DNA of 64,000 bases from Paludibacter sp. (GTDB lineage: Bacteria > Bacteroidota > Bacteroidia > Bacteroidales > Paludibacteraceae), in the NCBI GenBank assembly GCA_013426815.1, contig JACDZH010000001.1, positions 14,934-78,933 on the forward strand, written 5' to 3'. The first letter of the stretch is position 1, and every line of letters begins with the position of its first letter. Shown one piece after another: positions 2 to 50,408 of this stretch. Made by a program: the position numbers and the translations under genes. The notes under the pieces were generated by a model that worked only from the letters and a program-made list of their open reading frames with translations, was not told the DNA's origin and made no database searches.

Positions 2-280
2 CTTTGGGAACGTGTTGTGCCAGTTTCGTGGTCTGGAGTTTTACAATACAATGGCACACATGGTGACGGTTTAATAGATGGTGTGGGTAATCCCAATGCT
101 GCCACTTGGCTATATACACCAACTCCATCCTATACTATGCTTAGCTTCCGTGGTGGTGGAATTGCATATGATAATCAATATTTGAGAGTTTCAGATAGAT
201 ATTGGGCATGTGCTTACTCATGTGATTATGGTCGTTCCAATTGGAATGGTGGACGTGGCGTTCGTACAGCACCATTATGA
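2..280 (+). CDS. FGE/SUMF1-fold secreted protein, paralogue 1 (C-terminal part; 5' end lies outside the window)
   Basis: The frame is open from base 2 (LWERVVPVSWSG...GTHGDG...FRGGG...RVSDR...NGGRGVRTAPL*) and matches the C-termini of the three downstream paralogues. Confidence 0.88.
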   Translation, partial: LWERVVPVSWSGVLQYNGTHGDGLIDGVGNPNAATWLYTPTPSYTMLSFRGGGIAYDNQYLRVSDRYWACAYSCDYGRSNWNGGRGVRTAPL

Positions 281-384
281 AATTTTTCAACCCCAAGATT
301 GAAATAGACAAAGAAATTGATTACAATAGCTCGATAGATATTGGGTATATGATCCAAAAAATAATTCGTATATATTATAAATAG
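277..384 (+). other. 35-aa ORF coupled to paralogue 1 by an ATGA overlap; possible four-helix-bundle gene remnant
   Basis: MKFFNPKIEIDKEIDYNSSIDIGYMIQKIIRIYYK* fills the spacer and ends 7 nt before the next ATG. The resemblance to four-helix-bundle C-termini is by eye only. Confidence 0.25.
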
Positions 385-391
385 TTATATT

Positions 392-2044
392 ATGAAAAGA
401 AATTTATTAAAAATCGCAGGTGGCTTACAAAGCGGTATTTTTGTAATCGCTACATTCCTTTGCTTACTGTTAAGCACCGGAGTTTATGCCAATAACATTG
501 CCGTAACCAATGTAAGCCTCACCAGCCCGGGTGTGGGATATACAATGGTTCAGTTTGACATAAGTTGGGAAAACTCCTTCAGGGTAAGTCATGGTCCTAG
601 CAACTGGGATGCTGCCTGGGTGTTTGTTAAATACCGCATCAAATCAAGTTATGGTGGTGATGGTACATGGAAACATGCCTGGCTGAACGAGAACGGACAT
701 ACCGCACCAGTAGGCAGTACCCTGGATGTAGGTTTGTTAGATCCTAAAACAGCCTTTAACAATACCACCAACCCCGCTATTGGTGCATTTTTGTATCGGA
801 GTGACGATGGTGTAGGCACTTTTACCAAAACTGGTGTGCAACTTAGATGGAACTATGCCCAAAACTATAAAACCGGTACAACTCCTATTGGAAGCACCGA
901 TGTAATGGATGTACAGGTATATGCCATCGAAATGATATATGTACCCCAAGCTGCTTTCTATTTGGGTTCTGGGGGTAATGAATTGGGAGCTTTTTTCACT
1001 TATCCTAACGTTACTACTCCGTATCAGGTTACCAGCGAAGCTGCCATAACAGTAGGAACTACCCCCGGTAATCTTTATTACGATAACAGTCTTAGTACAG
1101 GTCAAATTACCAGTCAAATTGGTGACAGAGGTACTCCTATCCCTGCTACTTACCCCAAAGGATATACAGCTTTTTATTGTATGAAATACGAAGTAAGCCA
1201 ACAGGGATATGTCGATTTTTTAAATACTTTAACCCGTATACAGCAAGGTGCTCGTGTAGGAACTAATATATCCGTTGGAACAACCACAGTAACCAATCGT
1301 TATGTTATAATTGAACAAAATTATCCACTTTATCGCCATAATATTCGTTGTGATGCCACCATAGATGCCAATAATCCCATTACCTTTTATTGCGATGCCA
1401 ATGGCAATGGTATAGGAGGAGAATTCAACGATGGAAAAGATGTAGCACTGAATTCAAGTCAAGTTGATTTATTCGCTTATCTAGATTGGAGTGGTTTACG
1501 TCCTATGACCGAAATGGAATTTGAAAAAGCCTGTAGAGGCAATCAAACTCCGGTACCTAACGAATTTGCATGGGGTTCAACCAGTATTGTTTCTGCAACA
1601 AATTATATCAATAGTGGAGCTAATAACGAAGTAGCCAGCAATATTGCAGTCGGAGCCAATTGTCATGGTGGTATAAATGCCTGGGCGGGACCTATCCGGG
1701 TTGGTTCATTTGCCAGTGCGGCATCATCGCGCCAGTCAGCAGGTGCCACCTATTATGGCATTACCGATATGAGTGGGAATATGATGGAAACAACAGTCAC
1801 ATCCGGTAACACTACCGGAAGAGCATTTACCGGTACACATGGAAATGGTATTTTAAGTGTTACCGGTAATGGTGATCAAACTACATGGACTACTTCAGTT
1901 AATGGCTGGAGAGGCGGTTGCGGCTATCTTTCTGGATATAATTCTGATATCTTATACGTTTCCTATAGAGGATGGTCAGTATATAATTATACTAGTAATC
2001 GAGACTATATATCCGGTGGTCGTGGAGTAAGGACAATGCCTTAA
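392..2044 (+). CDS. FGE/SUMF1-fold secreted protein, paralogue 2 (550 aa)
   Basis: Sec signal ending GVYA/NNI; SWENSFR..NWDAAWVFVKY N-domain; FYCMKYEVSQ..YVDFLN; YLDWSGLRPMTEMEFEKACRG; DMSGNMME; terminal GGRGVRTMP. Confidence 0.88.
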   Translation: MKRNLLKIAGGLQSGIFVIATFLCLLLSTGVYANNIAVTNVSLTSPGVGYTMVQFDISWENSFRVSHGPSNWDAAWVFVKYRIKSSYGGDGTWKHAWLNENGHTAPVGSTLDVGLLDPKTAFNNTTNPAIGAFLYRSDDGVGTFTKTGVQLRWNYAQNYKTGTTPIGSTDVMDVQVYAIEMIYVPQAAFYLGSGGNELGAFFTYPNVTTPYQVTSEAAITVGTTPGNLYYDNSLSTGQITSQIGDRGTPIPATYPKGYTAFYCMKYEVSQQGYVDFLNTLTRIQQGARVGTNISVGTTTVTNRYVIIEQNYPLYRHNIRCDATIDANNPITFYCDANGNGIGGEFNDGKDVALNSSQVDLFAYLDWSGLRPMTEMEFEKACRGNQTPVPNEFAWGSTSIVSATNYINSGANNEVASNIAVGANCHGGINAWAGPIRVGSFASAASSRQSAGATYYGITDMSGNMMETTVTSGNTTGRAFTGTHGNGILSVTGNGDQTTWTTSVNGWRGGCGYLSGYNSDILYVSYRGWSVYNYTSNRDYISGGRGVRTMP

Positions 2045-2072
2045 TAATGAATAATGAATAATGAATAATGTA
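2045..2072. repeat. Heptamer tandem repeat (TAATGAA)x4, last copy degenerate
   Basis: Read directly after the paralogue 2 stop codon. Confidence 0.85.
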
Positions 2073-2081
2073 TAATTAAGA

Positions 2082-2099
2082 TCCCGATAGCTATTGGGA
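2082..2099. repeat. REP-like palindrome TCCCGATAGCTATTGGGA (one mismatch)
   Basis: Near-perfect 18-bp palindrome; a perfect copy lies at 5601-5618. Confidence 0.75.
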
Positions 2100-2197
2100 G
2101 AATTAAGAATTCTTATTCGTGTTAATTTGTTAAATTAGTGGTTCAATTATAATAAAAAATGACAGAAACAGAAATAACGTTTAAAAAATAAATAAAT

Positions 2198-3829
2198 ATG
2201 AAAAAAAACCATTCAAAACCCGTACACAGCTTGCAAAGTATCGTCTTTGTGTTGGCTGTATTCGTATGCTTTTTATTTAGCACAGGTGCTTACGCCAATA
2301 ACATTGTTGTATCAGGTACAACAGTTTACGGGCACAATACAACCTTTAAAACCACAATGGTGAAGTTTAACTTACAATGGGAAAACTCATTTAGGGTGGA
2401 TCGGGGTCCTGCCAACTGGGATGCCGCATGGGTATTTGTAAAATACCGTGTTCCTACTAACTATGGCGGTGATGGTGTTTGGCGACGTGCCTCAATAACT
2501 AATACAGACTTTGTAGCGCCGGCAGGTAGCACTGTGGCATTGGGTTTGCTTTCACCGGGTATTGCCTACAATGCTACTACAAATCCGGTAATTGGCGGGT
2601 TTGTTCATCGTAGTGTAAATGGAGTTGGTACTATTAACGCCACTGGTGTAGAGTTAAAATGGAACTACGGAAACGATATAAAAACCGGTAGCACACTGGT
2701 TGGTGATAATGATGTAGTAGATATACAGGTGTACGCCATCGAAATGGTGTATATACCCACCGCTAGTTTTTATTTAGGAAGCGGAGGTACCGAAAATAAT
2801 GCTTTTTACAAAGCCCCCAATACTTCCGATCCGTATTTGGTTACAAGTGAAGCACAAATTACTGTAAATGCGAGTTCACCAAATCTTTACTATCCAACAG
2901 GTACTTATGGCGGCGATCAGGCTGGTCCCATCGTGGCTGCATACCCCAAAGGATACAATGGATTTTATTGTATGAAGTACGAAGTGAGTCAGCAAGGATA
3001 TGTCGATTTTCTGAATAGTTTAGTACGTGTACAACAGGCTAACCATGTAGCTACTTCGGTAGGTGTTGGAGCTACATCTGTTACCAATCGTTATGTGATG
3101 TATAATTCTGCTTCGCTTGGTTTTAGAAATGGAATACGCTGCGATGCTGCTATCAATGCCAATGACCCCATTACTTTTTATTGCGACTTAAATGGCAATG
3201 GTACCGGCAGCGAAGCAGCAGATGGTAAAGATATTGCCTGCAATTATTTAAATTGGGCTGATTTAGCTGCGTATCTCGATTGGAGTGGCTTACGCCCTAT
3301 GACTGAGTTGGAATATGAAAAAGCTTGTAGAGGCACTAAGTTGCCGATACCCAACGAATATGCCTGGGGCACGGTAAATCTTACCCAGAACACAGGAATA
3401 AGCAATGCTGGGCTTACCAACGAAGTAAGTGCTAATGGCGGTAACGCAACTTATGCTAATAATGCCGGTGTGCAAGGACCTATGCGTGTAGGTGCTTTGG
3501 CATTAAATCCTTCGTCGCGCGAGCGTTCGGGTGCCAGCTTTTATGGCATTATGGAATTAAGTGGTAATCTGTGGGAACGCGCAGTAACTATAGGTAATAC
3601 CGCCGGCAGGGGTTTTACAGGCACACATGGCGATTGTGTATTGGATGGAAACGGCTATGCAAATGCAGCTACTTGGCCCGTCATTGCAGGAGCGGGAGTC
3701 GGCATTCGCGGTGGAGATTGGTTTAATCTTGCTACTTATATGACGGTTTCTGATGCTTATTTTAGATCCTATACATATAGTCTCCGATACCAAAATTTTG
3801 GTGGTCGTGGTGTTCGGTTGGCTCCTTGA
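2198..3829 (+). CDS. FGE/SUMF1-fold secreted protein, paralogue 3 (543 aa)
   Basis: Same architecture: GAYA/NNI, NWDAAWVFVKY, MKYEVSQ, LRPMTELEYEKACRG, ELSGNLWER, RGGDW...VSD...GGRGVRLAP. Confidence 0.88.
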   Translation: MKKNHSKPVHSLQSIVFVLAVFVCFLFSTGAYANNIVVSGTTVYGHNTTFKTTMVKFNLQWENSFRVDRGPANWDAAWVFVKYRVPTNYGGDGVWRRASITNTDFVAPAGSTVALGLLSPGIAYNATTNPVIGGFVHRSVNGVGTINATGVELKWNYGNDIKTGSTLVGDNDVVDIQVYAIEMVYIPTASFYLGSGGTENNAFYKAPNTSDPYLVTSEAQITVNASSPNLYYPTGTYGGDQAGPIVAAYPKGYNGFYCMKYEVSQQGYVDFLNSLVRVQQANHVATSVGVGATSVTNRYVMYNSASLGFRNGIRCDAAINANDPITFYCDLNGNGTGSEAADGKDIACNYLNWADLAAYLDWSGLRPMTELEYEKACRGTKLPIPNEYAWGTVNLTQNTGISNAGLTNEVSANGGNATYANNAGVQGPMRVGALALNPSSRERSGASFYGIMELSGNLWERAVTIGNTAGRGFTGTHGDCVLDGNGYANAATWPVIAGAGVGIRGGDWFNLATYMTVSDAYFRSYTYSLRYQNFGGRGVRLAP

Positions 3830-3832
3830 TAG

Positions 3833-3953
3833 TAGAATGTAGAATGTAGAATGTAGAATGTAGTTTTTATATTCTCAATTCTCAATTCAAAAATAATTCT
3901 CAATTCTCAATCAAAAATAATTCTCAATTCAAAAATAATTCTCAATTCAAAAA
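3833..3953. repeat. Spacer repeat block: (TAGAATG)x4 followed by four ~18-bp AATTCTCAATTCAAAAAT units
   Basis: Heptamers at 3833-3860; 18-mers at about 3877-3894, 3902-3918, 3919-3936 and 3937-3953. Confidence 0.85.
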
Positions 3954-4023
3954 GGGATTTACAATTCCAAAATAATTCGATTAAATAGAAAAAAATGATA
4001 AATAATTTTTAATAATAAAAAAT

Positions 4024-5586
4024 ATGAAAAGAAACCATTCAAAACCCGCATTCAGCTTGCAAAGTAAAACCTTTGCGCTAGCTGCTTTATTTTGTATTTT
4101 ATTTGGCACCGGCGCTTATGCAAATAATATTGCTATCGCCAACGTAACTCCCATTGGGCAATCTACATCAGGTGCTGCCAATACGCACTATACTATGGTG
4201 CAGTTCGACATTTCGTGGGCTAATTCATTTCGTGTAAGTACAGGTCCTTCTAACTGGGATGCTGCATGGATGTTTGTAAAATATCGAGTTTCGGTAGCCA
4301 ATGGCGGTGATGGACTTTGGAGACATGCCACCCTTAATACTTCTGGTTTCACAGCACCTACCGGTAGCTCCATTACTGCAGCTACCGATGGTACAGGCGC
4401 ATTTATCTATATGTCGGCTGATGGTCGTGCCGATTTTAATAAATTAGGCGTACAACTACGCTGGAACTACGGACTAAATACCAAAGATGGAGTTACAGGT
4501 ATTGGAGATAACGATTTAGTGGATATTCAGGTTTTTGCTATCGAAATGCTTTGGGTACCACAGGGAGCTTTTGCAATTGGTACCGGTGGAACCGAGACCA
4601 GCGCATTTACTCTTACCACCATTAATACCGGTTCTGCTACTTTGACCCCTGCAGGCGTTGGAACACTTGGTGGACAAGCAGGTGGATATCCAACAGGAGC
4701 AACATTACCTACTTCTTCAACTTTTTCTAATGGATTCAATGGATTTTATTGTATGAAGTACGAAGTAAGTCAAAAGGGGTATGTCGATTTTTTGAATACA
4801 TTAACCTATACCCAACAAGCAGGTCGTGTTAGCATTGCACCAAGTTCTTCTGTTGGTACTTATATTAATGGTATAGATAATAAACGAAACAAAATTAAAA
4901 TTGGAACTCCCGGAACAGCTTCTACAGTTCCTGCCGTTTTTACTGCCGAATTTACCGATGTAGCTTGTAACTGGCTAAGTTGGGGCGATTTAGCTGCTTA
5001 TCTCGATTGGAGTGGCTTACGCCCAATGACAGAATTGGAATACGAAAAAGCATGTCGTGGTACTTTAGCACCTGTTGCAAATGAATATATTTGGGGTGGA
5101 ACAACCATTGCTACAGCCGAATATACTATTTCTAGCGGTGGTAGTCCTAGTGAAGTTATCAATGATAATTATAGCACAACCTTGGGAAATGCCGCTTATG
5201 CAACCACTGATTTAGTAACAGGTATTAACGGTCCTGTTCGTGTTGGTATTTTTGCCGGAACTTCTGGAAACAATGGTAGAAGAACTGCAGGTGCAACCTA
5301 CAATGTAATTATGGAAATGGGTGGTAATGTGTCAGAACGTGTTGTGGCATTAGATGCAACAGGTAAAGCTTTTACAGGAGTACATGGCGATGGAAGGCTT
5401 GACGCTAATGGTGATGCAGTAGTTACCAACTGGCCTGATGTAATGACTGCCGCTGGTATTGGTTTCCGTGGCGGTAACTGGCAAAGTTCTGCTGATTTTT
5501 TACGTATTTCTGACCGTGCTGATATAGCAACAGTTGATGCAACTCGTACTGCTTTAACCGGTGGACGTGGTGTTAGAATACCGTAG
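4024..5586 (+). CDS. FGE/SUMF1-fold secreted protein, paralogue 4 (520 aa)
   Basis: GAYA/NNI, NWDAAWMFVKY, MKYEVSQ, LRPMTELEYEKACRG, EMGGNVSER, FRGGNW...ISDR...GGRGVRIP. Confidence 0.88.
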   Translation: MKRNHSKPAFSLQSKTFALAALFCILFGTGAYANNIAIANVTPIGQSTSGAANTHYTMVQFDISWANSFRVSTGPSNWDAAWMFVKYRVSVANGGDGLWRHATLNTSGFTAPTGSSITAATDGTGAFIYMSADGRADFNKLGVQLRWNYGLNTKDGVTGIGDNDLVDIQVFAIEMLWVPQGAFAIGTGGTETSAFTLTTINTGSATLTPAGVGTLGGQAGGYPTGATLPTSSTFSNGFNGFYCMKYEVSQKGYVDFLNTLTYTQQAGRVSIAPSSSVGTYINGIDNKRNKIKIGTPGTASTVPAVFTAEFTDVACNWLSWGDLAAYLDWSGLRPMTELEYEKACRGTLAPVANEYIWGGTTIATAEYTISSGGSPSEVINDNYSTTLGNAAYATTDLVTGINGPVRVGIFAGTSGNNGRRTAGATYNVIMEMGGNVSERVVALDATGKAFTGVHGDGRLDANGDAVVTNWPDVMTAAGIGFRGGNWQSSADFLRISDRADIATVDATRTALTGGRGVRIP

Positions 5587-5600
5587 GTAATTGATAATTT

Positions 5601-5618
5601 TCCCGATAGCTATCGGGA
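5601..5618. repeat. REP-like perfect palindrome TCCCGATAGCTATCGGGA
   Basis: 18-bp palindrome 15 nt after the paralogue 4 stop, flanked by TTGATAA-type heptamers. Confidence 0.8.
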
Positions 5619-6139
5619 TGATAATTGATAATTGAAAAAATTATACTTTTCCAAGTTTTCTTTTGACTTTTTCTTTTAACTTTTCCAAAGTTTCATTTGA
5701 CTTTGGAAAAGTTAGAATAAAAAAAAATTAGAATTGTATAACAATTTTCAATTATCTACACTTTCAAAAGGGTGAATCGGATATTCCGCCCTTCTGGGGT
5801 GCTTCAATTACATAAAAATGCACTTTAGCAAAACCTAGATTATCGGAAGAATAATTTTATGTTATTGTAATAATTGCTTTTTTAAACTTCTCACAATTTA
5901 TATCTGGTTTTGTAATATCATAATCAGGAAATTGAGGGTAATTATGTGATATGCACGGATGATACAACACATTAAATATTAAATGGAATGTATTTGTTTA
6001 TCATCTTCAAATAAACCACTGCCGGTTAGCTGCCTCGAATAAATCGATTCAGATAATAATCAACATTTTATGAGATGGGCAGTTATTTTCATTTCAAAAT
6101 CAAGCTCTTGTAATAGGGAGTAAGCGGTTAAATGTTACC

Positions 6140-6244
6140 AACTTCCGTGGTAACTATTGGAACAATAATCCAACGAAAATGCAAGTTTCCGACCAAAAGA
6201 ACCCGGCGAACTGCCACTATAATTGTATGTTCAATTATGGTGGT
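6140..6244 (+). other. Non-genic copy of the FGE paralogue C-terminal segment; decayed DGR template-repeat-like sequence
   Basis: Translates as NFRGNYWNNNPTKMQVSDQKNPANCHYNCMFNYGG. The RG-x12-SD-x15-GG spacing equals that of paralogues 3 and 4. 9 of 35 codons are AAC/AAT. No upstream FGE body in this frame (TGA at 6071-6073). Confidence 0.5.
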
Positions 6245-6336
6245 GTGAGTCGTGTGCTCTATGTTCATTGCTTTCGTTTGTACACTGATCTTTTGACCAT
6301 TGACCAGCACCAATTGGCAATGCAAATTTAACAATT

Positions 6337-9300
6337 ATGAAAAGACTATCTTTATATTTTATCTTGTTGGCAGCCCTCCCCATAGGTTTGTTGGCTCAAA
6401 ACGAACGGTACTATGGAGGTGCAGGACGTGGAGATAAAGTGCTAAAGATAAATAATATAGTGTTAAGTGATATAGCTTCACCAGCCGACTATATTTATTT
6501 GGGAGGTATTGGTAGAGGTGATATTGCATTAACCGAAGTTGATAATTATCTGAAATCTGTTGATGGTGTTTATGTGGGTGGAAATGGACGTGGCAATAGC
6601 CTTGAGCTTTCAAGTATTAACTTTCTTAGCGAAGGTGAAGTAAGTGTATTGGACTTAATTTGTCAAGGGGGTTTTGGAAGCGGTGATATAGCCGTAACCG
6701 AAACAAGTTATGCTTTGTATGGTTTTCAAACTGTATACAAAGGAGGTATTGGACGTGGTGATAAGAATGCTGTAATAAATGATGCCACTGCCGATGGTGG
6801 GAATGTGTATGATTTAATTTATGTAGGTGGTATTGGTCGTGGTGATGTGAACATCGCAGATGCGGGTCTATCGTTGAATGGTGTAGATGCAGCTTATGCA
6901 GGTGGTAATGGTCGTGGCGACATATTAGATACGCAATACAGTTTAGCAATTAATGATCTTGGAATTTTCGAATCGGTTTATTTAGGTGGTATTGGGCGAG
7001 GTGATATAGTGCGTACGGAAAACAATTTCTTGTTGGGCGGTTATGGTGCGCGTTTTGTAGGCGGTAATGGTCGTGGTGATATCTCCATTGTAAGTTCAGA
7101 ATTAAGCATAGGAAGTAGATCTATTTACGATATTTTATATTTTGGAGGAGTAGGACGTGGAGATATTTCAAAAACAGAGAATGCCTATTCACTTGGTGGT
7201 ATAGAAGTGGTGTACGTGGGTGGCAACGGACGTGGTGATAATGTTAATACCAAATACATCAATTCCATCAACGAAGGTAATCTTACTGACATCATCTACT
7301 CGGGTGGTGGGGGACGTGGTGATATATCGGTAATTGAAACCAATTATGCATTGTCCGGTGTTGGTGCTGTTTACTTTGGCGGCAATGGTCGCGGTGATAT
7401 CTTATTAGGATTATACGATTCAACCGTTAGTGGAAATAACGATGGAATATTTATGGGCGGTGTTGGTCGTGGAGATATATCCTTAACAGAAAGCAATTTC
7501 TCATTGGGAGGTCTCGACGGACTGTTCGTGGGTGGAAATGGTCGTGGAGATAAACTTCAGGGCTTATATTTTATTTCAATAAGCGGCTTTAATATATATG
7601 CCGGCGGTGTGGGTCGTGGTGATATTTCTCGTACCGAAACCAATTATCTATTAAGTGGTTTAGGAGGTCGTTTTGCCGGTGGTATTGGTCGTGGAGATAT
7701 TATAATTAAAATACCTAATACTGGCATTGGTGGTGGTTCTATTATTGATATGCTCTACAGTGGTGGAATTGGACGTGGAGATGTTTCAATCAGAGAAACC
7801 GAATATTATTTATCCGGATTAGATTTTGTTTATTATGGCGGTAATGGACGTGGTGATATTATTGAAGCAAAATACACTAACTTTATCAATGAAGTTGATA
7901 TTACCGATGTCATCTACTCGGGTGGAATAGGCCGTGGTGATAATTCTAATATAGAAACCAGTTATCCATTATCGGGAGTAGGCGGCGTTTACTTTGGTGG
8001 AATAGGGCGTGGAGATAATTTATTGAGTATTTATGATGTTTCTACCGGTGGTGGAATTGATATTATTTACACTGGTGGTATAGGTCGTGGAGATGTATCT
8101 CAGACAGAAAATAATTATACATTGGGTGGTTTCGATGGACTATTTGTGGGCGGTAATGGACGTGGAGATAGGCTCGAAACTTTGTACAGCGCTCAGGTCG
8201 CAGTTATTAATTTATATGCCGGTGGCTTGGGTCGTGGCGATATATCGCATACCGAAACAAATAATTTATTAAGTGGTTTTGGTGGTCGTTACTTTGGAGG
8301 TATTGGTCGCGGTGATATTAGCATAACTTCGTTTGGCAGTTCAAATCTCGAATTATTGTATGCCGGTGGTGTGGGTCGCGGTGATATGGGTACAGCAGAT
8401 TCTAATTTATTACTTGCCGGATATGATGCCGTTTATGTGGGAGGTAATGGTCGTGGTGATAAATTGGATGTTTTAGCTGAACTTCCACTTGGCAATAGTA
8501 CAATTTACACCGGTGGTGTTGGACGTGGTGATATTTCGGTTACCGAAACTAGTTTCTCATTGTCAGGAGTTGGCGGAGTTTACTTTGGTGGCATTGGTCG
8601 TGGTGATATTTTATTTAGCATTTTCGATAAATTGGTTACTGGTGATGATATAATTTCAAACATTTATTACGGTGGTATTGGTCGTGGTGATTTTGGAATT
8701 GTTGAAACTAGTTCATCACTGTCAGGACCGGATGCACTTTATGTGGGTGGCAATGGACGTGGTGATATGTCTCAATTATTGGCAACTATTGGTACAGTTA
8801 ATATTTATACTGGCGGTGTAGGTCGCGGTGATTTTAACCGTACAGAAATTGGCTTTTTACTAAATGGTGTTGGTGCCCGTTATTTAGGTGGTGTCGGTCG
8901 TGGTGATATCAGTGTAAAGGTTATACAAGTAATAGATCCAGATTTGATTTACACAGGTGGTATAGGTCGTGGTGATGTTAGCTTAGTTAATATCAATTTG
9001 TTATTGGGCGGTCCAGATGGACTTTTTGTGGGAGGCAATGGTCGAGGTGATAACAGGCATCAAGCCAATTCTATTCCAATAAATGAAATTCCACTCTTTG
9101 ATATTATCTACAATGGTGGAGATGGTCGTGGTGATTATAACTATTTAAGTCATGATTCCTATCTTGACGGTACTTATCGTGGTGGAGATCGTTACCGAGG
9201 CGGTTCTGGTCGTGGAGATATCATCTCTAATACAACTCATTCCTTGCTCGATGGTACTACCAACTTTAATGCTATCATTTATGGAGGTGGTATTGGTCGG

Positions 9301-12021
9301 GGTGATATTTCAATACTTATTGATAGTTATCCATTAGCAGGTTCTGATAATCTTTATAATGGTGGTGATGGACGTGGTGACATTGAAAATCAATTGGACA
9401 ATGTATATATCAATGAAACTGGTGTACCCATAGATTTATTATATGTTGGAGGTATGGGACGTGGTGATGCATCACACACTGAATTTGATTTTACATTAAG
9501 AGGTTTGGGTGTTTACTTTGGTGGCGATGGACGGGGTGATGTATTATATGGTATTGAAGATAAATTAACGAACGGAGAAGATATTTACTCAGTAGTTTAT
9601 GTGGGTGGTTTAGGACGTGGTGATATAGCCACTGGAGGAAACGATTATCCACTTAGTGGTACTGATGGAGTTTATGTAGGGGGTTCCGGTCGTGGTGATA
9701 AGTTGGATTATGTAAAAACTCTAGGTATTAATGCGGCTATTTGGTTGGGAACACTTAATAACGATTGGGCGAATGCAGGTAACTGGGGTGGAAACATATT
9801 GCCAGCTGAGGATGGTGATATAATATTTGGTTACAATCCTATAAATGATTTATACATGGATGCCGATCATTTGCTACGTAGAATTACCAATGCCAGTGCT
9901 ACACGTCGATTGGTAACCAATGGTCATATATTGAAAGTATCGAATGACTTTGTATTCACTAACGGAGCTCAAATAGATGCATCCGCAATTGGTTCTGCCA
10001 TTGAGATGGATGGTATTGTTACCCAAATAATCCCTGCCGGTTTGTTTGTTTCAAATAACGTCTATAACTTAATCATAAATAATGCGCCGAATGTAAGGTT
10101 GAGCGGTACAATCAATATTATGAATGAATTGACAACTCTTGCAGGTAAGTTAGATGTAACTACTAATTTAGCGACAGTTAATTTTGTAGGTACTTCTGCT
10201 CAAACCATTGGAGATGTGTTCTTGAATAACAGGGTTTACAACTTAACTATAGATAATCCTGCAGGTGTAACCATCAATAATTCTGCCAATACTACCTTGG
10301 TTGGAACCTTGACATTGAAAAATACGTTAACAGTATCAGGTGCAGGACGTTTAGATGCAGATTCGATTACATTAAATCCAGCAGTAATATATTCGGGTGT
10401 GACTGCTCAATCCATTGATGATGATCTTTATCTTCTCAACAGAGCGCATAATCTAATCATCAACAATACAGCAGGTGTTACCCTCAATACTGACTTTGCA
10501 GTAGATAATGTATTGACTATCAATCCAGGTAAAAAAATGACAATACCTACCGAAAAGTATATGTATGTTGATAAAACATTCACAAACAATGCAGGAATAT
10601 CCGGTTTGTTAATCAAAGCCAGTGTAGATGGGTCTGTTGCAAATGGTTCGTTGGTATTCAATAATGTTAGAAATAATCCGGTGTCAGCCACTGTAGAAAT
10701 GTACGATAAAGCATCTGGTCCGGCTGGAAATACCTTGGCAAGTAAGTTTAAATGGCAATACTTTGGTATACCGTTCAGAAGCTTAACACATGGCGGTATA
10801 TTCAATAGAGGGGATGGAAATGGTTCGTATGTACGTCGTTGGAATCATAGTGATTCGAAATGGTATTTACAGAAAGGTGATTCAATACTGACATCGTTCA
10901 CAGGTTATGAAATTGCACAACCAAATCCTAAAGTAATTACCTTTACAGGCGTGCTGGAAAATGGTAACTTTACTAAAACATTGGATTATAACGGTGTTGG
11001 AACAAATAAAGGACAGTATTTATTTGCTAATCCTTATACAGCAGCCATTGATATTACTAAACTTGAATTTACTGATGGAGTTGAAAAGTCGGTTTATTTA
11101 TTCAATACTGGCTCTACGGCTGACTGGACTGCCAATGGTGGTGTGCTTACACCAGGCAATAATCCTGGACAATATGTAGTGGCACCAAAACAAACTGCAG
11201 GTACTGGAGGAATTCCATCTCAAATACCATCAATGCAAGGCTTCTTGGTGAACGATATCGAGGATTTGGACCGTGATAGTGTTCATATATTTAGTATACC
11301 TTATTCAGCTGTGGTAACTAAAAACACAGCACCACTAAGAACTAGATCAAATGATAATGTAGCCAAATCTGATAAAGTATATAGTATTATTGATGTGAAG
11401 GGTAGTCGTTTTGGTGACCGTATGTGGTTGTTCACCGATTCTACTTGCAACCATGACTTTAACAATGGATGGGACGGACGGAAAGTATTCGGTACTGTTC
11501 TTACACCTCAGCTATATGCAGTTGAATCGGATGGTGATTATCAAATTAATGCTGTGAATGATATTAACAACACAGATTTGGCATTCCAGGCTGGTGAAGA
11601 CACAAAATATAAGCTCACATTCTCACACACCAATACTGAAACGCATTATGCAGCTATCTATTTGGTTGATATGTTAGAAAATGTTACTACTGATATTACA
11701 TTATCTGGTTCGGAATATGCATTCGAAGCTGCTTCAACTGAAAAGCCGGTGAAACGATTTAAAATTATTACCGTTTCGGCAACTGCAACTAGTACTAGTC
11801 TGACTAAGGTATTCAGTGCTGACAAAACAATTTTTGTACAGAATTTCAGTCATGTAATTGGTGATTTGTATCTATACGATATTGCAGGAAGATTTATTCA
11901 AAAATCACCATTTGGAGGAAGTGGATTAACAGCAATACCAGTGAATTTACCTGTAGGACCGTATGTAGTAAAAGCTGTTACAAAATTAGATGTAACAACT
12001 TCAAGTTTGATAATTAAATAA
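6337..12021 (+). CDS. Giant T9SS-secreted protein with 43 GGxGRGD-type repeats (1894 aa); putative adhesin or scaffold
   Basis: Signal peptide; repeat region 6409-9699; WLGTLNNDWANAGNW module; repeated VYNLxIxN beta-helix-like units; WQYFGIPF domain; T9SS-type tail (LYLYDIAGR...LPVGPYVVK...LIIK). Confidence 0.9.
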   Translation: MKRLSLYFILLAALPIGLLAQNERYYGGAGRGDKVLKINNIVLSDIASPADYIYLGGIGRGDIALTEVDNYLKSVDGVYVGGNGRGNSLELSSINFLSEGEVSVLDLICQGGFGSGDIAVTETSYALYGFQTVYKGGIGRGDKNAVINDATADGGNVYDLIYVGGIGRGDVNIADAGLSLNGVDAAYAGGNGRGDILDTQYSLAINDLGIFESVYLGGIGRGDIVRTENNFLLGGYGARFVGGNGRGDISIVSSELSIGSRSIYDILYFGGVGRGDISKTENAYSLGGIEVVYVGGNGRGDNVNTKYINSINEGNLTDIIYSGGGGRGDISVIETNYALSGVGAVYFGGNGRGDILLGLYDSTVSGNNDGIFMGGVGRGDISLTESNFSLGGLDGLFVGGNGRGDKLQGLYFISISGFNIYAGGVGRGDISRTETNYLLSGLGGRFAGGIGRGDIIIKIPNTGIGGGSIIDMLYSGGIGRGDVSIRETEYYLSGLDFVYYGGNGRGDIIEAKYTNFINEVDITDVIYSGGIGRGDNSNIETSYPLSGVGGVYFGGIGRGDNLLSIYDVSTGGGIDIIYTGGIGRGDVSQTENNYTLGGFDGLFVGGNGRGDRLETLYSAQVAVINLYAGGLGRGDISHTETNNLLSGFGGRYFGGIGRGDISITSFGSSNLELLYAGGVGRGDMGTADSNLLLAGYDAVYVGGNGRGDKLDVLAELPLGNSTIYTGGVGRGDISVTETSFSLSGVGGVYFGGIGRGDILFSIFDKLVTGDDIISNIYYGGIGRGDFGIVETSSSLSGPDALYVGGNGRGDMSQLLATIGTVNIYTGGVGRGDFNRTEIGFLLNGVGARYLGGVGRGDISVKVIQVIDPDLIYTGGIGRGDVSLVNINLLLGGPDGLFVGGNGRGDNRHQANSIPINEIPLFDIIYNGGDGRGDYNYLSHDSYLDGTYRGGDRYRGGSGRGDIISNTTHSLLDGTTNFNAIIYGGGIGRGDISILIDSYPLAGSDNLYNGGDGRGDIENQLDNVYINETGVPIDLLYVGGMGRGDASHTEFDFTLRGLGVYFGGDGRGDVLYGIEDKLTNGEDIYSVVYVGGLGRGDIATGGNDYPLSGTDGVYVGGSGRGDKLDYVKTLGINAAIWLGTLNNDWANAGNWGGNILPAEDGDIIFGYNPINDLYMDADHLLRRITNASATRRLVTNGHILKVSNDFVFTNGAQIDASAIGSAIEMDGIVTQIIPAGLFVSNNVYNLIINNAPNVRLSGTINIMNELTTLAGKLDVTTNLATVNFVGTSAQTIGDVFLNNRVYNLTIDNPAGVTINNSANTTLVGTLTLKNTLTVSGAGRLDADSITLNPAVIYSGVTAQSIDDDLYLLNRAHNLIINNTAGVTLNTDFAVDNVLTINPGKKMTIPTEKYMYVDKTFTNNAGISGLLIKASVDGSVANGSLVFNNVRNNPVSATVEMYDKASGPAGNTLASKFKWQYFGIPFRSLTHGGIFNRGDGNGSYVRRWNHSDSKWYLQKGDSILTSFTGYEIAQPNPKVITFTGVLENGNFTKTLDYNGVGTNKGQYLFANPYTAAIDITKLEFTDGVEKSVYLFNTGSTADWTANGGVLTPGNNPGQYVVAPKQTAGTGGIPSQIPSMQGFLVNDIEDLDRDSVHIFSIPYSAVVTKNTAPLRTRSNDNVAKSDKVYSIIDVKGSRFGDRMWLFTDSTCNHDFNNGWDGRKVFGTVLTPQLYAVESDGDYQINAVNDINNTDLAFQAGEDTKYKLTFSHTNTETHYAAIYLVDMLENVTTDITLSGSEYAFEAASTEKPVKRFKIITVSATATSTSLTKVFSADKTIFVQNFSHVIGDLYLYDIAGRFIQKSPFGGSGLTAIPVNLPVGPYVVKAVTKLDVTTSSLIIK
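6409..9699 (+). repeat. Intragenic repeat array: 41 GRGD plus 2 variants (GRGN, GSGD), units of 22-30 aa
   Basis: Counted from the translation; mostly 25-aa units alternate with variable 22-30-aa units. Confidence 0.92.
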
Positions 12022-12025
12022 TAAA

Positions 12026-12802
12026 ATGGGTAACATAAGTAAAATAACAATTGGACTATTTGTCTTTGTATTACTAGGGGTTTCATTAATCCTAGTGCTA
12101 CGTTATTTTCCTATGAGTACACCTGAAAACTATACCGTAAGACCTCATCTTAATTTTAAACAAGGAGCTGTTTTTAATCAAAATGTGAAATATATTTCAA
12201 TTAATAATGCCGATAAAAAACTAAAGAAAGGATTGCAATTTAACTTAAAAGTTGAAAATGAACCCATTTCACCTTCCAATAGCAAACAATTACAAGGTGT
12301 GAATTTTGGCACTAGAATTATGAATACTTCTAAGTCAAATACACAGTTTGTCGACGAAAATCCTTTTGAAACCATGCATAATCATGAAATTGGTTTATTG
12401 AGAACAAGAAGTAGTGTTGGAAGGAATGTTGTGTTATCACAATATATGGTCGGTGAAACAAGCCAACACGCCAGTTATAAGATAGAAAATAACAGGGTTA
12501 ATTCTATGCCTACAAGCTCAATGGGTACATATATTTCAAGTAATAATGCTACTAGCAATAATTCCAAAAATCAACCACAAAGTAACTATTCGTTCTCTAC
12601 TGATTTGAAATCACTTCAAACATTGCTTTTATCGAAACAAGATAATCCATCGTTTGGTCCCGATCCTGGTGGTCCAGGTGATACGGGAGATGATATGGGC
12701 GAACCTGTAGCTCCTGTTCCAGATGGTTTCTGGTTCTTAATGTTGTTGGGAGCAATGTATGCCGGACGGAAATTCTATAAATATTTTCAACTTATCAAGT
12801 GA
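12026..12802 (+). CDS. Hypothetical membrane/surface protein with a C-terminal PEP/PID-CTERM-like sorting signal
   Basis: N-terminal hydrophobic helix, S/N-rich middle, then GPDPGGPG linker, PVAPVPDG, a hydrophobic stretch and basic RKFYK; starts 4 nt after the repeat-protein stop. Confidence 0.65.
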   Translation: MGNISKITIGLFVFVLLGVSLILVLRYFPMSTPENYTVRPHLNFKQGAVFNQNVKYISINNADKKLKKGLQFNLKVENEPISPSNSKQLQGVNFGTRIMNTSKSNTQFVDENPFETMHNHEIGLLRTRSSVGRNVVLSQYMVGETSQHASYKIENNRVNSMPTSSMGTYISSNNATSNNSKNQPQSNYSFSTDLKSLQTLLLSKQDNPSFGPDPGGPGDTGDDMGEPVAPVPDGFWFLMLLGAMYAGRKFYKYFQLIK

Positions 12803-16625: not shown

Positions 16626-19600
16626 ATGTCAAAACTTCTCATAAACGAATACTATCAAAATCTCGATAGAACTTTGCAATATGGTAAAAGTAGTAACGAA
16701 CAGAGTATCAGAAATCATTTCTGGCATTTACTGAACGATTATGCCCGTAAACTGAATTATGAAGTGATACCAGAAGTATCTGTTATGGGCACTAGAGGTA
16801 AAAAAGTGTACCCCGATGGAACAGTGAAAAATCTTTGGGGACTTGATATTGGTTTATGGGAAAGTAAGGACGAAAAGGATGACATTGAAGCCGAAATTGA
16901 TGCCAAAATTGTAAAAGGGTATCCACTTACAAACATACTTTTTGAAGACAGCAACCTTGCTGTTCTATTTCAGCGTGGCATAGAGGTTATGCGTGTGAAA
17001 GTGCGCGATGTCGATAGTTTCGACAAAATTCTGACCATGTTTATTGGTTTTAAAAGCGAATCTGTTTATCAGTTTGAAGAGGCGATAGAAAAATTTAAAG
17101 CAGATATTCCTATAATTGTAGAAACGCTGCGAACCAAAATTATGGAGGATAGGGCTAATAATGCCCAATTTATTGCAGAACAGAACACGTTTTTTGAATT
17201 GTGTAAAGTGGAGATAAACCCCAGCATCACATTGGATGATATTCGCGAAATGATGATACAACACATTCTGACAAGCGATATTTTCAATAAAATTTTCGAT
17301 GACCCCGATTTTCATCATCATAATACCATTGCTTCGGAATTAGAAAAGCTCACGGCTACACTTTTTACATACCCCGAACGACGTAACCTGCTCAACAGCA
17401 TTGAACATTATTACCAAGCCATCAATTCCACTGCTGCCGGAATTACCGACCACCACGAGAAACAAAAGTTCCTAAAAGTATTATACCAAAACTTTTACAA
17501 GGTATATAATCCAAAAGCTGCCGACCGATTGGGAGTTATTTATACACCAAACGAAATTGTATCATTTATGGTAAAAAGCACCAACTACCTGCTTCACAAG
17601 TATTTTGGGCGTACTTTGGCTGACCATAACGTGGAAATTCTCGACCCAGCCACTGGTACCGGAACGTTTATTTGCGAAATAATTGAAAACGCCATTCCCA
17701 AACAAAACCTCGATTACAAATTCAAAAACGAACTACATGCCAACGAAGTAGCCATATTGCCCTATTATATTGCTAATCTGAATATTGAGTACACTTTTAA
17801 GCAAAAAATGCAATATTACGCCGAGTTCCCTAACCTATGTTTTGTAGATACCATCGACAATACTGGAGGATTGGTATTTGAAGGAAAGCAACACGATTTG
17901 TTTGGATTGAGTAGTGAAAATTCAGAACGCATTAAACGTCAAAACCGCAAGAAAATATCCGTTATCATTGGCAATCCGCCTTATAACGCCAACCAACTGA
18001 ACGAAAACGAGAACAACAAAAACCGCGAATATCCTTTTATCGATAAACGCATTAAAGATACTTTCATAAAGCACAGCACGGCTCAAAAAACAAAAGTCTA
18101 TGATATGTATGCCCGATTTTACCGCTGGGCAATGGACAGGATAGAGCAAAACGGCGTATTGGCAATGATTACCAACCGAAGTTTTATTGACAGCCGTACC
18201 TTCGATGGTTTCCGAAAATGTATTCAGTCAGAATTTTCTCATTGTTATATCATTGATACACTAAGCGATGTGCGTGCAAATCCTAAAATTGCCGGAACCA
18301 CACACAATGTTTTTGGCATTCAAACTGGAGTTGCCATCATGTTTTTGATAAAAAAAGATAAACAAGCCGGAAATTGTATGATTGAATATGTAAGTATGGA
18401 CGATTACTGGCGAAAAGAAGAAAAACTTGACTGGCTGAAAAACAATCAGATAGAAAATATTCACTTCCAAACCATACACCCCGACAAAAATAACAATTGG
18501 ATTAATTTGAGTGAAGAAAATGATTGGGAAAATTTGATTCCAGTGGCTGATAAAGATGTAAAACTGGGTAGAAGTAAAAAAGCTATTTTTGAATTGTTTT
18601 TTACTGGTGTACCTACAAATAGGGATGGATGGGTTTACGACTTAAATAAAAATAACCTTATAAATAAAATGAATTTTTTCTCAGAGACATTTAATAAAAA
18701 TTTGGGGAAAAATGAATTTGATAATCGATTGAAATGGAGTCGAGATTTAAAAAACGAACTTCTCAGAGGAAATAAGTCTTCATTTAATTCAAAATATATT
18801 GTTCAAGCAGTTTATCGTCCTTTTATTAAACAGTTTCAATATACAGAAAAAATTCTTAATGATGTTTTAACACAAAATCATTATGACGTTTTTGGAAGTA
18901 ATTTAAACGAGGTGAATAAAATAATTTGTATTCCTGGAGTAGGGATTGATAGACCATATCATTGTATATCAGTAAAATATTTACCACATTTACAAATTAC
19001 ACCTAATGGTCAATGTTTACCAGCAAAACGCTATAATAAAGCAAATCAATATGTTGACAATATAACCGACTGGGGTTTAGAGCAATTTTTTACTCATTAC
19101 GATGACGAAACCATCACGAAAGAAGATATTTTTCATTACACCTACGCTGTTTTGCATAATCCGGTTTACCGCGAAAAATACAAATTGAACCTTAAACGAG
19201 AGTTTCCACGTTTGCCTTTTTATAACGATTTCAAAAAATGGGCTGCATGGGGCAAATCTTTGATGGAACTTCATATTAATTACGAAACCGCCAAACCATA
19301 CAATTTGGAAGTGCTGACATTTGAAACTAAAACCGAAGCAAAAGCAGAAGTGAAACGCCAAAAGGAAATGTTTATAGTGGTAAGCGAACCTGATGAATTG
19401 TTCATAAGAATTCCAAAAATTAAACCACGTTTAAAAGCCATTAAAAATATTGGGATTATCGAAATTGATGATTTGACATTTCTAAAAGGAGTTCCATCAA
19501 TTGCTTGGGAATATAAATTAGGTAACCGTTCAGCCATCGAATGGATTTTGGATCAATATAAAGAAAAGAAACCAACCGATCCCACTATCGCCGATCAGTT

Positions 19601-19724
19601 TAATACCTACCGTTTTGCCGATTACAAAGACAAGGTTATTGAATTGATTCAGCGTGTATGTACTGTCAGTGTGGAAACCATGAAAATTACCGAAGAAATG
19701 AAATTAGAGTTCAAGATTCAATAA
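16626..19724 (+). CDS. Single-chain restriction-modification enzyme: N6-adenine methyltransferase with an N-terminal PD-(D/E)xK-like region and a type ISP-like C-terminal specificity domain; no helicase
   Basis: YPDG...WESKD (nuclease-like), GVIYTP, LDPATGTGTF (motif I), IIGNPPY (motif IV), YRPF, EFPRLPF, YKLGNRSAIEWILDQY; no DEAD/helicase motifs in 1032 aa. Confidence 0.85.
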   Translation: MSKLLINEYYQNLDRTLQYGKSSNEQSIRNHFWHLLNDYARKLNYEVIPEVSVMGTRGKKVYPDGTVKNLWGLDIGLWESKDEKDDIEAEIDAKIVKGYPLTNILFEDSNLAVLFQRGIEVMRVKVRDVDSFDKILTMFIGFKSESVYQFEEAIEKFKADIPIIVETLRTKIMEDRANNAQFIAEQNTFFELCKVEINPSITLDDIREMMIQHILTSDIFNKIFDDPDFHHHNTIASELEKLTATLFTYPERRNLLNSIEHYYQAINSTAAGITDHHEKQKFLKVLYQNFYKVYNPKAADRLGVIYTPNEIVSFMVKSTNYLLHKYFGRTLADHNVEILDPATGTGTFICEIIENAIPKQNLDYKFKNELHANEVAILPYYIANLNIEYTFKQKMQYYAEFPNLCFVDTIDNTGGLVFEGKQHDLFGLSSENSERIKRQNRKKISVIIGNPPYNANQLNENENNKNREYPFIDKRIKDTFIKHSTAQKTKVYDMYARFYRWAMDRIEQNGVLAMITNRSFIDSRTFDGFRKCIQSEFSHCYIIDTLSDVRANPKIAGTTHNVFGIQTGVAIMFLIKKDKQAGNCMIEYVSMDDYWRKEEKLDWLKNNQIENIHFQTIHPDKNNNWINLSEENDWENLIPVADKDVKLGRSKKAIFELFFTGVPTNRDGWVYDLNKNNLINKMNFFSETFNKNLGKNEFDNRLKWSRDLKNELLRGNKSSFNSKYIVQAVYRPFIKQFQYTEKILNDVLTQNHYDVFGSNLNEVNKIICIPGVGIDRPYHCISVKYLPHLQITPNGQCLPAKRYNKANQYVDNITDWGLEQFFTHYDDETITKEDIFHYTYAVLHNPVYREKYKLNLKREFPRLPFYNDFKKWAAWGKSLMELHINYETAKPYNLEVLTFETKTEAKAEVKRQKEMFIVVSEPDELFIRIPKIKPRLKAIKNIGIIEIDDLTFLKGVPSIAWEYKLGNRSAIEWILDQYKEKKPTDPTIADQFNTYRFADYKDKVIELIQRVCTVSVETMKITEEMKLEFKIQ

Positions 19725-48478: not shown

Positions 48479-48697
48479 ATGGCACGAATAGCAGGCATTA
48501 CAATAGAAAAGGACGAACGCGGCAACGCACGATTTGCCCGTATTGATTTGCGTAAACATGGCGAATTATTTAATCCAATTTTAAAGGGAGTTGGAGTTGA
48601 TGTAAATAACATAAAACTTACATCCAAACTGAAACGTAGTATTGATGAAGCTAAATCAGGTAATTATACTCGTGGTAATTTAGAAAATTTTTGGTAA
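48479..48697 (+). CDS. Putative antitoxin (72 aa; not obviously Phd/YefM at the N-terminus)
   Basis: Small ORF upstream of the toxin with a TAATG overlap; C-terminal LKRSIDEAKSG resembles YefM-type toxin-binding helices. Confidence 0.65.
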   Translation: MARIAGITIEKDERGNARFARIDLRKHGELFNPILKGVGVDVNNIKLTSKLKRSIDEAKSGNYTRGNLENFW

Positions 48698-48996
48698 TGG
48701 AATATTTCGAAACGCGCACAGCATTAAAGGATAAACAAAAAATTAAATCAATGGACGGTTCTACTAAAAAACGATTAAAGGATATAGTAGAAAGTATCAT
48801 TGAAAGTCAGCTTGATTTAGATGCTATTGGAAAGCCTGAACAATTAAAGTATTCCGATATTGATTTATGGTCAAGAGAATTAACAAAAAAAGATCGTATT
48901 GTTTATGCTATTGAACCTGGATATTTATATGATATGAGCAATGAAGCTGAAATAATAGTATTTTATCAATATTTAGGACATTATACCGACAAATAA
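48697..48996 (+). CDS. yoeB: Txe/YoeB family mRNA interferase toxin
   Basis: IGKPEQLKY...WSRELTKKDRIVY matches the YoeB GKPEPLK..WSRRI..HRLVY pattern; ATG at 48697. Confidence 0.8.
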   Translation: MEYFETRTALKDKQKIKSMDGSTKKRLKDIVESIIESQLDLDAIGKPEQLKYSDIDLWSRELTKKDRIVYAIEPGYLYDMSNEAEIIVFYQYLGHYTDK

Positions 48997-49445: not shown

Positions 49446-50408
49446 CTATGGGACGAACACCACCCGGAACCCTAAAGTGAAGCCGTTGCTGATCGGGGTG
49501 TTGTCAGTGCGAATAGCTCAGCGGCAATACCGAGCGTATTCGTTCCAACTGCCACCACGAATCACGCGGTACGAGCCCGTTGTAGCACCTGTAGGGTTGT
49601 TCTGAGCAGTGGTAGGATAAGTGCCGTAACAGTCGGCGCACCATTCCCACACATTCCCGTGCATATCGTAAAGACCGTAGGCATTGGCAGGATTAGTACC
49701 TACCGTTTGGGTTTTGCTTAATGGTGTAGTAATTGTATTGGTACAAGTGCAGTAAGGTGACGACCACCTATAATTGGCTTGCAAATTCGTTAAGCAGTTA
49801 CCGGTACTAAAGGGCGTGGTAGTACCTGCTCGGCAGGCATATTCCCATTGGGCTTCGTTAGGCAAAGTACCACCTACGTTAGTAGCAAACTCAGTTGCGC
49901 CATACCAAGTTACTCTATTCACCGGAGCATTTTCGTAACCTACTACTGGTACCCATTGGCTGCCACTGTAATGTAAACCAAAGTCGTAAGTATCACTTCT
50001 GGCATAAATCAAAACCTGCGTTGGATATGCACCTGCTGCATACTTACCATCGCTACCAATACTTTTGGCATTCAAAAAGGCGGCATACTGCGCATTCGTT
50101 ATCTCGTACTTACTCATACGGAAGCTACTAAGAGTAACGGCAAACTGAGTTTCGTTGGTTTCTCGGTTTACTTCGGTTACAGGGCTGCCCATTATAAACA
50201 TGCCACCCATAATATGCGCAGTCTGAATATCGGCACCCGGAGTAGCTATTACCGGTTTGTAAAAGATAATGCTGTCCACACCGGTTTTCTTAATTGATTG
50301 TTTGTTGATTATCACACCACCTTTCATTACATACATGGTGTCGGTTTGCGCTTGAAGCAGGGCTGCGGGAAAAATGAAAGCTGCTAATGTTAGAAATATT
50401 TTTTTCAT
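49446..50408 (-). pseudogene. Secreted FGE/SUMF1-domain protein with a DGR variable-region-like C-terminus and an in-frame TGA at 49518-49520
   Basis: Signal peptide; GGMFIMGSP, KYEITNAQY, LPNEAQWEYACRAG, YDMHGNVWEWC, RVIRGGSW; the frame continues past TGA as AIRTDNTPISNGFTLGFRVVFVP*. Confidence 0.8.

Follow-up and report, generated by a model that had tools for sequence, protein, structure and literature searches.

A conserved pairing of FGE-fold lectin genes with a motif-bearing partner gene, and a decayed template repeat, in Paludibacter

The window analysed here is a 64,000-nucleotide stretch of DNA from Paludibacter sp. (GenBank assembly GCA_013426815.1, contig JACDZH010000001.1, positions 14,934 to 78,933 of the forward strand), and this report concerns the six genes, all co-oriented, that occupy its nucleotides 2 to 12802 (Table 1). 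Four of them encode paralogous proteins with the fold of formylglycine-generating enzyme (FGE) and a C-terminal variable region (VR), here termed the FGE-lectins P0 to P3. The fifth encodes a long partner protein with tandem glycine-rich motifs and a probable C-terminal type IX secretion system (T9SS) domain, and the sixth a protein of 258 residues. The gap of 750 nt that separates P3 from the partner gene holds an element resembling the template repeat (TR) of a diversity-generating retroelement (DGR). This element is absent from the original prediction, which was made from the sequence alone and proposed a surface system in which a repeat protein docks interchangeable FGE subunits.

The comparisons draw on a genome scan with one genome per species, which yielded 79 loci with family members (L002 to L080), on a Logan contig that reaches 2.9 kb upstream of the window start (L001), and, for homologues of the repeat protein and the 258-residue protein, on searches of 5.8 billion proteins.

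Table 1. Features of the lectin and partner locus (window coordinates unless a contig is named; aa, amino acids; ORFan, open reading frame with few or no relatives)
Feature	Coordinates	Strand	Description
P0	2..280	+	C-terminal 92 codons of the first FGE-lectin paralogue; VR segment 146-265
P0 full gene	L001:1525-3177		550 aa
P1	392..2044	+	FGE-lectin paralogue of 550 aa, with a signal peptide up to roughly nt 490
P1 VR segment	1907-2032	+	32-aa core
P2	2198..3829	+	FGE-lectin paralogue, 543 aa; N-terminal beta-sandwich aa 36-186, then FGE fold
P2 VR segment	3704-3817	+	28-aa core, equal in length to the L043 TR core
P3	4024..5586	+	FGE-lectin paralogue, 520 aa
P3 VR segment	5464-5577	+	28-aa core
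Spacer from P3 to TR relic	5587..6142		matching interval in L043 (target gene to TR) holds avd and the reverse transcriptase gene
Decayed DGR template repeat	6143..6244	+	non-coding; family similarity spans 6134-6268
Partner protein	6337..12021	+	1894 aa; signal peptide ending GLLA, followed by Q; 43 motifs; body of about 700 aa
Partner repeat motifs GGxGRGD	6415-9699	+
Probable T9SS type A C-terminal domain of the partner	about 11824-12018	+
Lineage-specific ORFan, 258 aa	12026..12802	+	begins 4 nt past the partner gene

The FGE-lectin array and its variable tips

The original prediction counted at least four co-oriented paralogues, and the number is exactly four, since the full-length P0 gene on the upstream contig is preceded only by a gene for a DsbD_2 membrane protein. 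P1 to P3 match the Pfam family FGE-sulfatase (PF03781) with E values of 1e-8 to 2e-10; the P0 fragment alone gives no such match, and full-length P0 is listed with the domain. An AlphaFold2 model of P2 (predicted local distance difference test score, pLDDT, of 72.9; predicted TM score of 0.80) contains the beta-sandwich and the FGE-fold domain, for which Foldseek finds its best PDB matches among formylglycine-generating enzymes (E = 6e-5, with a target-relative TM of 0.5). A profile search likewise matches FGE (E = 1e-5), with coverage of the central helix region. The Pfam matches, the model and the Foldseek result agree with the predicted FGE/C-lectin fold.

While the fold is shared with FGE (SUMF1; PDB 6muj and 1y1e), the window proteins differ from the enzyme in their extra N-terminal domain, and the family adjoins genes for T9SS cargo rather than sulfatase genes. 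Furthermore, the family alignment contains no conserved cysteine pair, which bears out the predicted absence of the catalytic FGE motif and led to the rejection of a catalytic FGE as a candidate identity. P1 to P3 and full-length P0 all start with a signal-peptide-like segment that ends in (T/V/A)YA and is followed by NNI, in keeping with the Sec signal that they had been predicted to share; cleavage at YA/NNI was read off the sequence and not taken from a prediction tool. Lipobox and T9SS tail are both missing, as had also been claimed, the former by eye and the latter by the lack of a match. An identity as GldK/GldJ/PorK lipoproteins was ruled out on similar grounds, as P1 to P3 have no NCBIfam match of any kind, GldJ and GldK included, and no lipobox by eye.

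The family occurs mainly in Bacteroidota and Ignavibacteriota, and its N-terminal domain is found in about 1,350 cluster representatives. Longer members carry an added Fib_succ_major, Lcl_C, Laminin_G_3 or PKD domain. None of 10 long forms is fused to a T9SS C-terminal domain, and all of them carry other binding domains.

The strong divergence that had been described at the C-terminal end was confirmed, and the variable segment spans the 28 to 33 residues from (F/W/I)RGG to GGRGVR. Between paralogues, identity is 18-28% in the tip versus 48-58% over the rest of the protein. Three of the paralogues have closer orthologues in other metagenomes (P2 with P0002, P1 with P0005 and P0003, and P0 with P0004), and in these pairs the identity is 36-56% in the tip versus 77-86% in the body. 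As the orthologue pairs are closer than the paralogues and are least alike in their tips, the array must be old and the tip its fastest-evolving part.

The origin of this variability is illustrated by two relatives. At locus L043, downstream of the family gene come avd (bAvd, E = 3e-14), a gene for a reverse transcriptase (RT; RVT_1, E = 9e-21) and the TR, 143 nt long, which repeats the 3' end of the family gene and reads GAGFRGGNWNNNATNLQVSDRNNAANTNNNRNNNYGGRGVRVAP. All 23 of the 23 mismatches between this TR and the corresponding VR fall at adenines of the TR, which is the defining signature of a diversity-generating retroelement, and the adenine fraction of the VR is 0.10. At L086 (Ga0105045_10011694, reverse-complement coordinates 4129-7876 of a 7.9-kb contig), 19 of 20 mismatches between TR and VR are at adenines and 1 lies elsewhere. 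Both targets belong to the family of P0 to P3, that of L043 being matched at 44% identity and that of L086 at 47%.

A corresponding footprint is visible in a comparison of 29 distinct family VRs, all of equal length. Positions that correspond to asparagine in the TR have an entropy of 3.24 bits versus 1.72 bits elsewhere, and the third codon base at these positions is a pyrimidine in 81% of cases, versus 57% at other VR positions and 60% in the gene bodies. This bias fits, as it is what mutagenesis of AAY codons predicts. The C-terminal segment of 28 to 33 residues is a DGR variable region. The predicted interchangeable subunits are therefore correct as to the variable tip, and need amendment where variability was treated as just a property of the subunits.

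FGE-sulfatase/CLec1 proteins are the largest class of DGR targets, and TvpA of Treponema denticola, the prototype of this class (category b), is non-catalytic, with a lectin domain that is thought to bind (Wu et al. 2018, PMC5758913). The window family resembles these TvpA-type targets in having its VR at the C-terminal end of an FGE-type C-type-lectin domain, in its RGG...GGRGVR-like constant flanks and non-catalytic domain, and in the intact, adenine-specific target-avd-RT-TR cassettes of its relatives. It differs in several respects: the window retains a decayed TR only, without RT, avd or a cognate TR/VR pair; an N-terminal beta-sandwich specific to the family is present, and the signal is of the plain Sec type, whereas TvpA is a lipoprotein; and the genes are paired with motif-bearing T9SS cargo, a pairing that is described for no TvpA-type target in the open-access papers searched.

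Separately, an open reading frame (ORF) downstream of an FGE-family gene at L072 (L072:6181-6759) shows a weak likeness to 23S rRNA-IVP/Avd (E = 5e-5, below the cut-off). That contig ends 1.2 kb past the family gene, and the site is a possible further DGR-linked locus.

The partner gene and its pairing with the lectins

The window's partner protein contains exactly 43 GGxG(R/S)G(D/N) motifs at an alternating spacing of 25 and 28 residues. The motifs are organised in repeat blocks of about 206 residues, each with 8 motifs (window 6802-9261). Identity between blocks is 49-56%, and this higher-order period suggests that the array expanded through the duplication of large blocks. The repeat region has no match among PDB profiles or in Pfam. 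It shares with the calcium-binding GGxGxD repeats of RTX proteins a glycine-rich G-G-x-G-x-(G)-D core and its tandem repetition, but the period is 25/28 residues versus 9, the motif has an extra residue (GGxGRGD), no RTX family is matched, and most partners have a single N-terminal copy. An RTX identity was rejected because of the wrong period. The C-terminal body of the window's partner aligns with the partners at L004, L057 and L028, among which L004 alone was checked for a T9SS domain, with a significant result.

In the family at large, the usual gene after the last FGE-family gene encodes a signal peptide ending in AQ, followed directly by (Y/F)-x-G-G-x-G-R-G-D or a GGxxDGF variant. Within 2 kb downstream of the FGE genes, the strict motif GGxGRGD was found at 33 of 76 loci versus 0 of 588 control segments from the same loci, and a loose form of the motif at 57 of 76 versus 69 of 588. 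This comparison is the co-occurrence check that had been proposed with the original prediction, and it shows that FGE-family genes and GGxG(R/D)G proteins pair across Bacteroidota and Ignavibacteriota. The pairing also holds in the reverse direction: for each of four multi-repeat proteins, picked solely by their likeness to the window repeats, between one and three FGE-sulfatase genes lie upstream, at a distance of 6-450 nt. The pair is kept at two IMG/VR loci as well, and the intergenic gaps between its genes are usually below 100 nt.

Most partners carry their motif or motifs at the mature N-terminus, and in 34 of the 41 intact partners listed (a hand count) the sequence Q-aromatic-x-GG stands right behind the signal peptide. 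A glutamine in this position fits the Q-rule of Bacteroidetes, under which N-termini become pyroglutamate (PMC5837995). A T9SS C-terminal domain (PF18962/TIGR04183) is significant at E <= 1e-3 in 24 of 39 partners, with a best E value of 1e-15, and the remaining partners are either truncated or equipped with domains of surface type (BACON, SprB, Ig, fn3, Laminin_G). The smallest, at 137-150 residues, consist of a signal peptide, the motif, a linker of about 35 residues and the T9SS domain, and nothing else. The partners are thus similar to T9SS type A cargo in this domain and in signal peptides that end in AQ, and differ from it in the N-terminal Q-(Y/F)xGGxGRGD motif and in being found always beside FGE-lectin genes. 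Multi-repeat relatives number only 30 among the 5.8 billion proteins, all of them 233-669 residues long, which makes the 43 motifs of the window's partner an extreme case of expansion. The original prediction had made a 43-repeat protein part of the module; the pairing with a motif protein stands, while the 43-repeat form is not typical, as most partners have one or a few motifs.

The motif is not represented by any model in Pfam or NCBIfam, and no description of the motif, of the gene pair, or of FGE-type DGR targets tied to T9SS cargo was found in the open-access papers searched. FGE-type DGR targets are already known, and their pairing with a gene for motif-bearing T9SS cargo would be the new part.

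Family members also occur in metagenome-assembled genomes (MAGs) labelled Brocadiaceae, Bdellovibrionota and Alphaproteobacteria (L013, L061 and L050). The partner at L013 keeps the N-terminal motif, and its C-terminal sequence is not T9SS-like by eye. The partner at L050 looks T9SS-type, and that MAG may therefore be mis-binned.

We favour, at slightly better than an even chance, the reading that a conserved two-gene surface module is present here, that it formerly included a DGR, since lost, and that its lectins are tethered by the partner. The partner would be exported and anchored at the surface by the T9SS, and its N-terminal motif or motifs would tether the FGE-lectins, which have a Sec signal only. 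A cell could in this way display lectins with different tips; in the window, four fixed specificities would be held on a 43-site scaffold, with high avidity. Docking of the lectin on the motif is plausible from the sequences, and is favoured by the minimal partners that offer the motif only, by its fixed N-terminal position, by the occurrence of one partner per one to four lectins, and by the binding-type fusions of the family. Conserved residues such as NWDAAWVFVKYR would be candidates for an interface with the motif peptide QYSGGNGRGDVML.

Several points weigh against this reading. To our knowledge, there is no known route for FGE-lectins across the outer membrane, and we know of no precedent for co-export with T9SS cargo. 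About a quarter of the loci lack a downstream motif, and 15 of the 39 partners have no T9SS domain by Pfam. In the window itself, the partner had been predicted to be a 43-repeat T9SS protein; the 43 repeats are there, and the T9SS tail gives a direct match that is only weak, with TIGR04183 at E = 0.054 and 13.5 bits versus a cut-off of 23, and no Pfam match. An AlphaFold2 model of an 8-motif segment, with the internal repeats serving as the alignment, reached a pLDDT of 49 and was unusable. As to the retroelement, an RT is present in cis at just 1 of the 79 genome-scan loci, so that DGR targeting may be absent from the history of most family members, and common ancestry of the VR could account for part of the family-wide footprint.

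The best-surviving alternative, unlikely in our judgement, is that no physical or biochemical link exists, and that FGE-lectins and motif proteins act independently of each other as surface or secreted adhesins and share no more than their transcription. Bodies as diverse as those of the partners, with their BACON, SprB, Ig, fn3 and Laminin_G domains, could indeed work alone. However, the short N-terminal motif is the sole conserved feature of the partners, the smallest of them, with motif and T9SS domain only, are hard to square with an independent adhesin, and the pairing is highly specific both ways.

Somewhat less probable again is a role in the periplasm, in which the FGE protein would act on the motif of the cargo before export, as a modifying enzyme, a chaperone or a quality-control factor. 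Proteins with the FGE fold are classically enzymes that act on a short peptide motif, and a Sec signal alone makes the periplasm the default location; the fixed position of the motif at the mature N-terminus and the operon-like tight gene spacing also speak for such a role. Yet the catalytic cysteine pair of FGE presumably sits in the very segment that is the hypervariable, DGR-targeted tip here, and we know of no precedent for DGR diversification of an enzyme active-site region. The C-terminal fusions in the family, which are all binding modules, argue against such a role as well, as does the lack of FGE activity in TvpA, a protein of the same target class (PMC5758913).

Targets of DGRs in the FGE/C-lectin class are common, and the gene pair gives a display route for them that can be tested. 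It also supplies a dedicated and easily recognised partner for a large target family, in the form of an N-terminal QYxGGxGRGD that is usually accompanied by a T9SS domain. Should the two proteins be a true docking pair, the motif and the adaptor would be usable to tether proteins to Bacteroidota surfaces.

A fossil template repeat

The TR-like element between P3 and the partner gene is non-coding, with the in-frame reading FRGNYWNNNPTKMQVSDQKNPANCHYNCMFNYGG. It is identical to the L043 TR at 77 of 102 nt (75%) and equal in length to the core of that TR, its adenine fraction is 33%, and 7 of the 8 asparagines of its core fall on asparagine positions of the TR. Across the 79 loci, the only Asn-rich element outside a long ORF with a significant TR-peptide match, besides the copy of the relic on L001, is the TR of L043 itself.

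The remaining components of a retroelement could not be detected. Among window ORFs of at least 150 residues there is no RVT_1 match, and neither a tblastn search with the L043 RT nor a regular expression for RT motifs found anything in the window; no RT lies in the approximately 2.9 kb upstream either. Similarly, avd has no match in the window or in that upstream stretch, and no remnant of RT or avd is detectable in 5587-6336 even at E values of up to 50. Identity between the relic and the VRs of the window reaches only about 45%, and an adenine-to-N search of the window for a cognate VR matched the relic alone. The VRs of the window differ in length, at 28, 28, 30 and 32 residues, and have a normal adenine content. 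A terminator and promoter scan gave nothing above the shuffled expectation.

With a decayed TR only, and without avd, RT and a cognate VR, the window therefore holds a fossil DGR. The same absences, together with the unequal VR lengths and the lack of adenine depletion, imply that the tips are frozen, and that they reflect past mutagenic retrohoming followed by drift. A DGR active in cis was rejected, as RT, avd and a cognate TR/VR pair are all absent in the window. From these comparisons we conclude that the FGE genes were once separated from the partner gene by an avd-RT-TR cassette, which has decayed in this lineage.

A scan of metagenomes with a degenerate TR pattern returned two loci only, L086 and L087. 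At L086, the order is FGE-family gene, degenerate avd, TR and GGxGRGD partner, with no RT on the contig, and the TR precedes the partner gene by about 70 nt, the same placement as that of the window relic. L086 is either an intermediate stage of DGR loss or a locus at which the RT acts in trans. L087 carries a target-avd-TR-RT cassette ending in IGFR, and its target could be assigned to no family.

The latter possibility at L086 bears on whether the DGR might still be active in Paludibacter, with the relic serving as a working TR, an RT elsewhere in the genome and a remote target being diversified. L086 offers some precedent, as its TR/VR pair has adenine-specific changes and no RT is found on its 7.9-kb contig; remote targets are known in Treponema (PMC5758913), and only about 67 kb of the genome is covered here. 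The relic itself makes this improbable. Many of its template asparagine codons now specify Tyr, Lys, Gln, Cys, His, Met or Phe instead, and its 3' GGRGVR end is disrupted. Used as a TR, the relic disagrees with P2 and P3 at 50% of its non-adenine sites (34-35 of 68), and the lack of a cognate VR in the window, as well as window VRs that are unequal in length and not depleted of adenine, points the same way.

Taken with the two relatives, the relic completes a series in which a DGR decays in three steps at one and the same homologous site: the cassette is intact in L043, L086 has a TR and cognate VR with a degenerate avd and no RT in cis, and the window has the relic alone. The series shows hypervariable receptor arrays persisting past the loss of their retroelement.

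A wider reading, which we hold tentatively and consider well short of an even chance, is that the Fibrobacteres-Chlorobi-Bacteroidetes (FCB) group possesses a two-component surface-display system not described so far. A T9SS-exported adaptor anchored at the surface, with one to dozens of (pyro)Gln-(Y/F)-x-GG-x-G-R-G-D motifs, would recruit Sec-exported FGE-lectins and possibly take them through the T9SS, and the ligand-binding tips of the lectins would be rewritten, now or once, by a DGR situated between the two genes. The genome analysed here would then be an end state, in which the retroelement is lost, four specificities are fixed and the scaffold has expanded to 43 sites.

The downstream reading frame and other genes of the window

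In the 258-residue protein, the N-terminal part includes a hydrophobic segment, and the C-terminal part carries PVPDG followed by a hydrophobic stretch and a basic tail; the sequence ends in PVPDGFWFLMLLGAMYAGRKFYKYFQLIK. It had been put forward as a CTERM-like member of the system, a claim that did not hold. No NCBIfam CTERM model matches it at E <= 0.1, no exosortase was found among the window proteins scanned, its single homologue among the 5.8 billion proteins, 55% identical, is syntenic in a close relative, and no homologue occurs at any of the 79 genome-scan loci. Judged from these searches, it is a lineage-specific ORFan outside the conserved module. A three-part system, in which a CTERM-sorted protein would work with the FGE subunits and the repeat scaffold, would draw on the closeness of the gene to that of the partner and its synteny in that one relative, and is very improbable given the solitary homologue, the absence from all 79 loci, and the missing CTERM match and exosortase.

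Elsewhere in the window, nucleotides 49518-50408 of the reverse strand encode a 296-residue FGE-sulfatase-domain protein (Pfam E = 9e-44) that ends at an in-frame TGA. The frame continues with AIRTDNTPISNGFTLGFRVVFVP to a further stop, on to about 49446, which is like the usual C-terminus of such domains, and the break resembles the effect of a nonsense mutation, or of an error in sequencing, in the segment to which a VR would correspond. Membership of this protein in the P0-P3 family was considered and rejected, as hhalign aligned only 28 columns.

Four paralogues of about 720-800 residues are encoded on the reverse strand at 44763-46928, 50837-53245, 58675-60840 and 60856-63222, embedded among glycoside hydrolase, sulfatase and lambda-carrageenase genes, with 60-80% DNA identity in blocks (repeat families D4-D9). 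A T9SS C-terminal domain is significant in those at 50837-53245 and 60856-63222, and has no match in those at 44763-46928 and 58675-60840. The forward strand carries a gene for a YoeB-like toxin at 48691-48996 (Pfam E = 3e-11), which overlaps an upstream ORF of 72 residues (48479-48697) that has no Pfam match and is the probable antitoxin, and, at 16626-19724, a gene for a Type ISP restriction-modification enzyme (Type_ISP_C, E = 7e-81).

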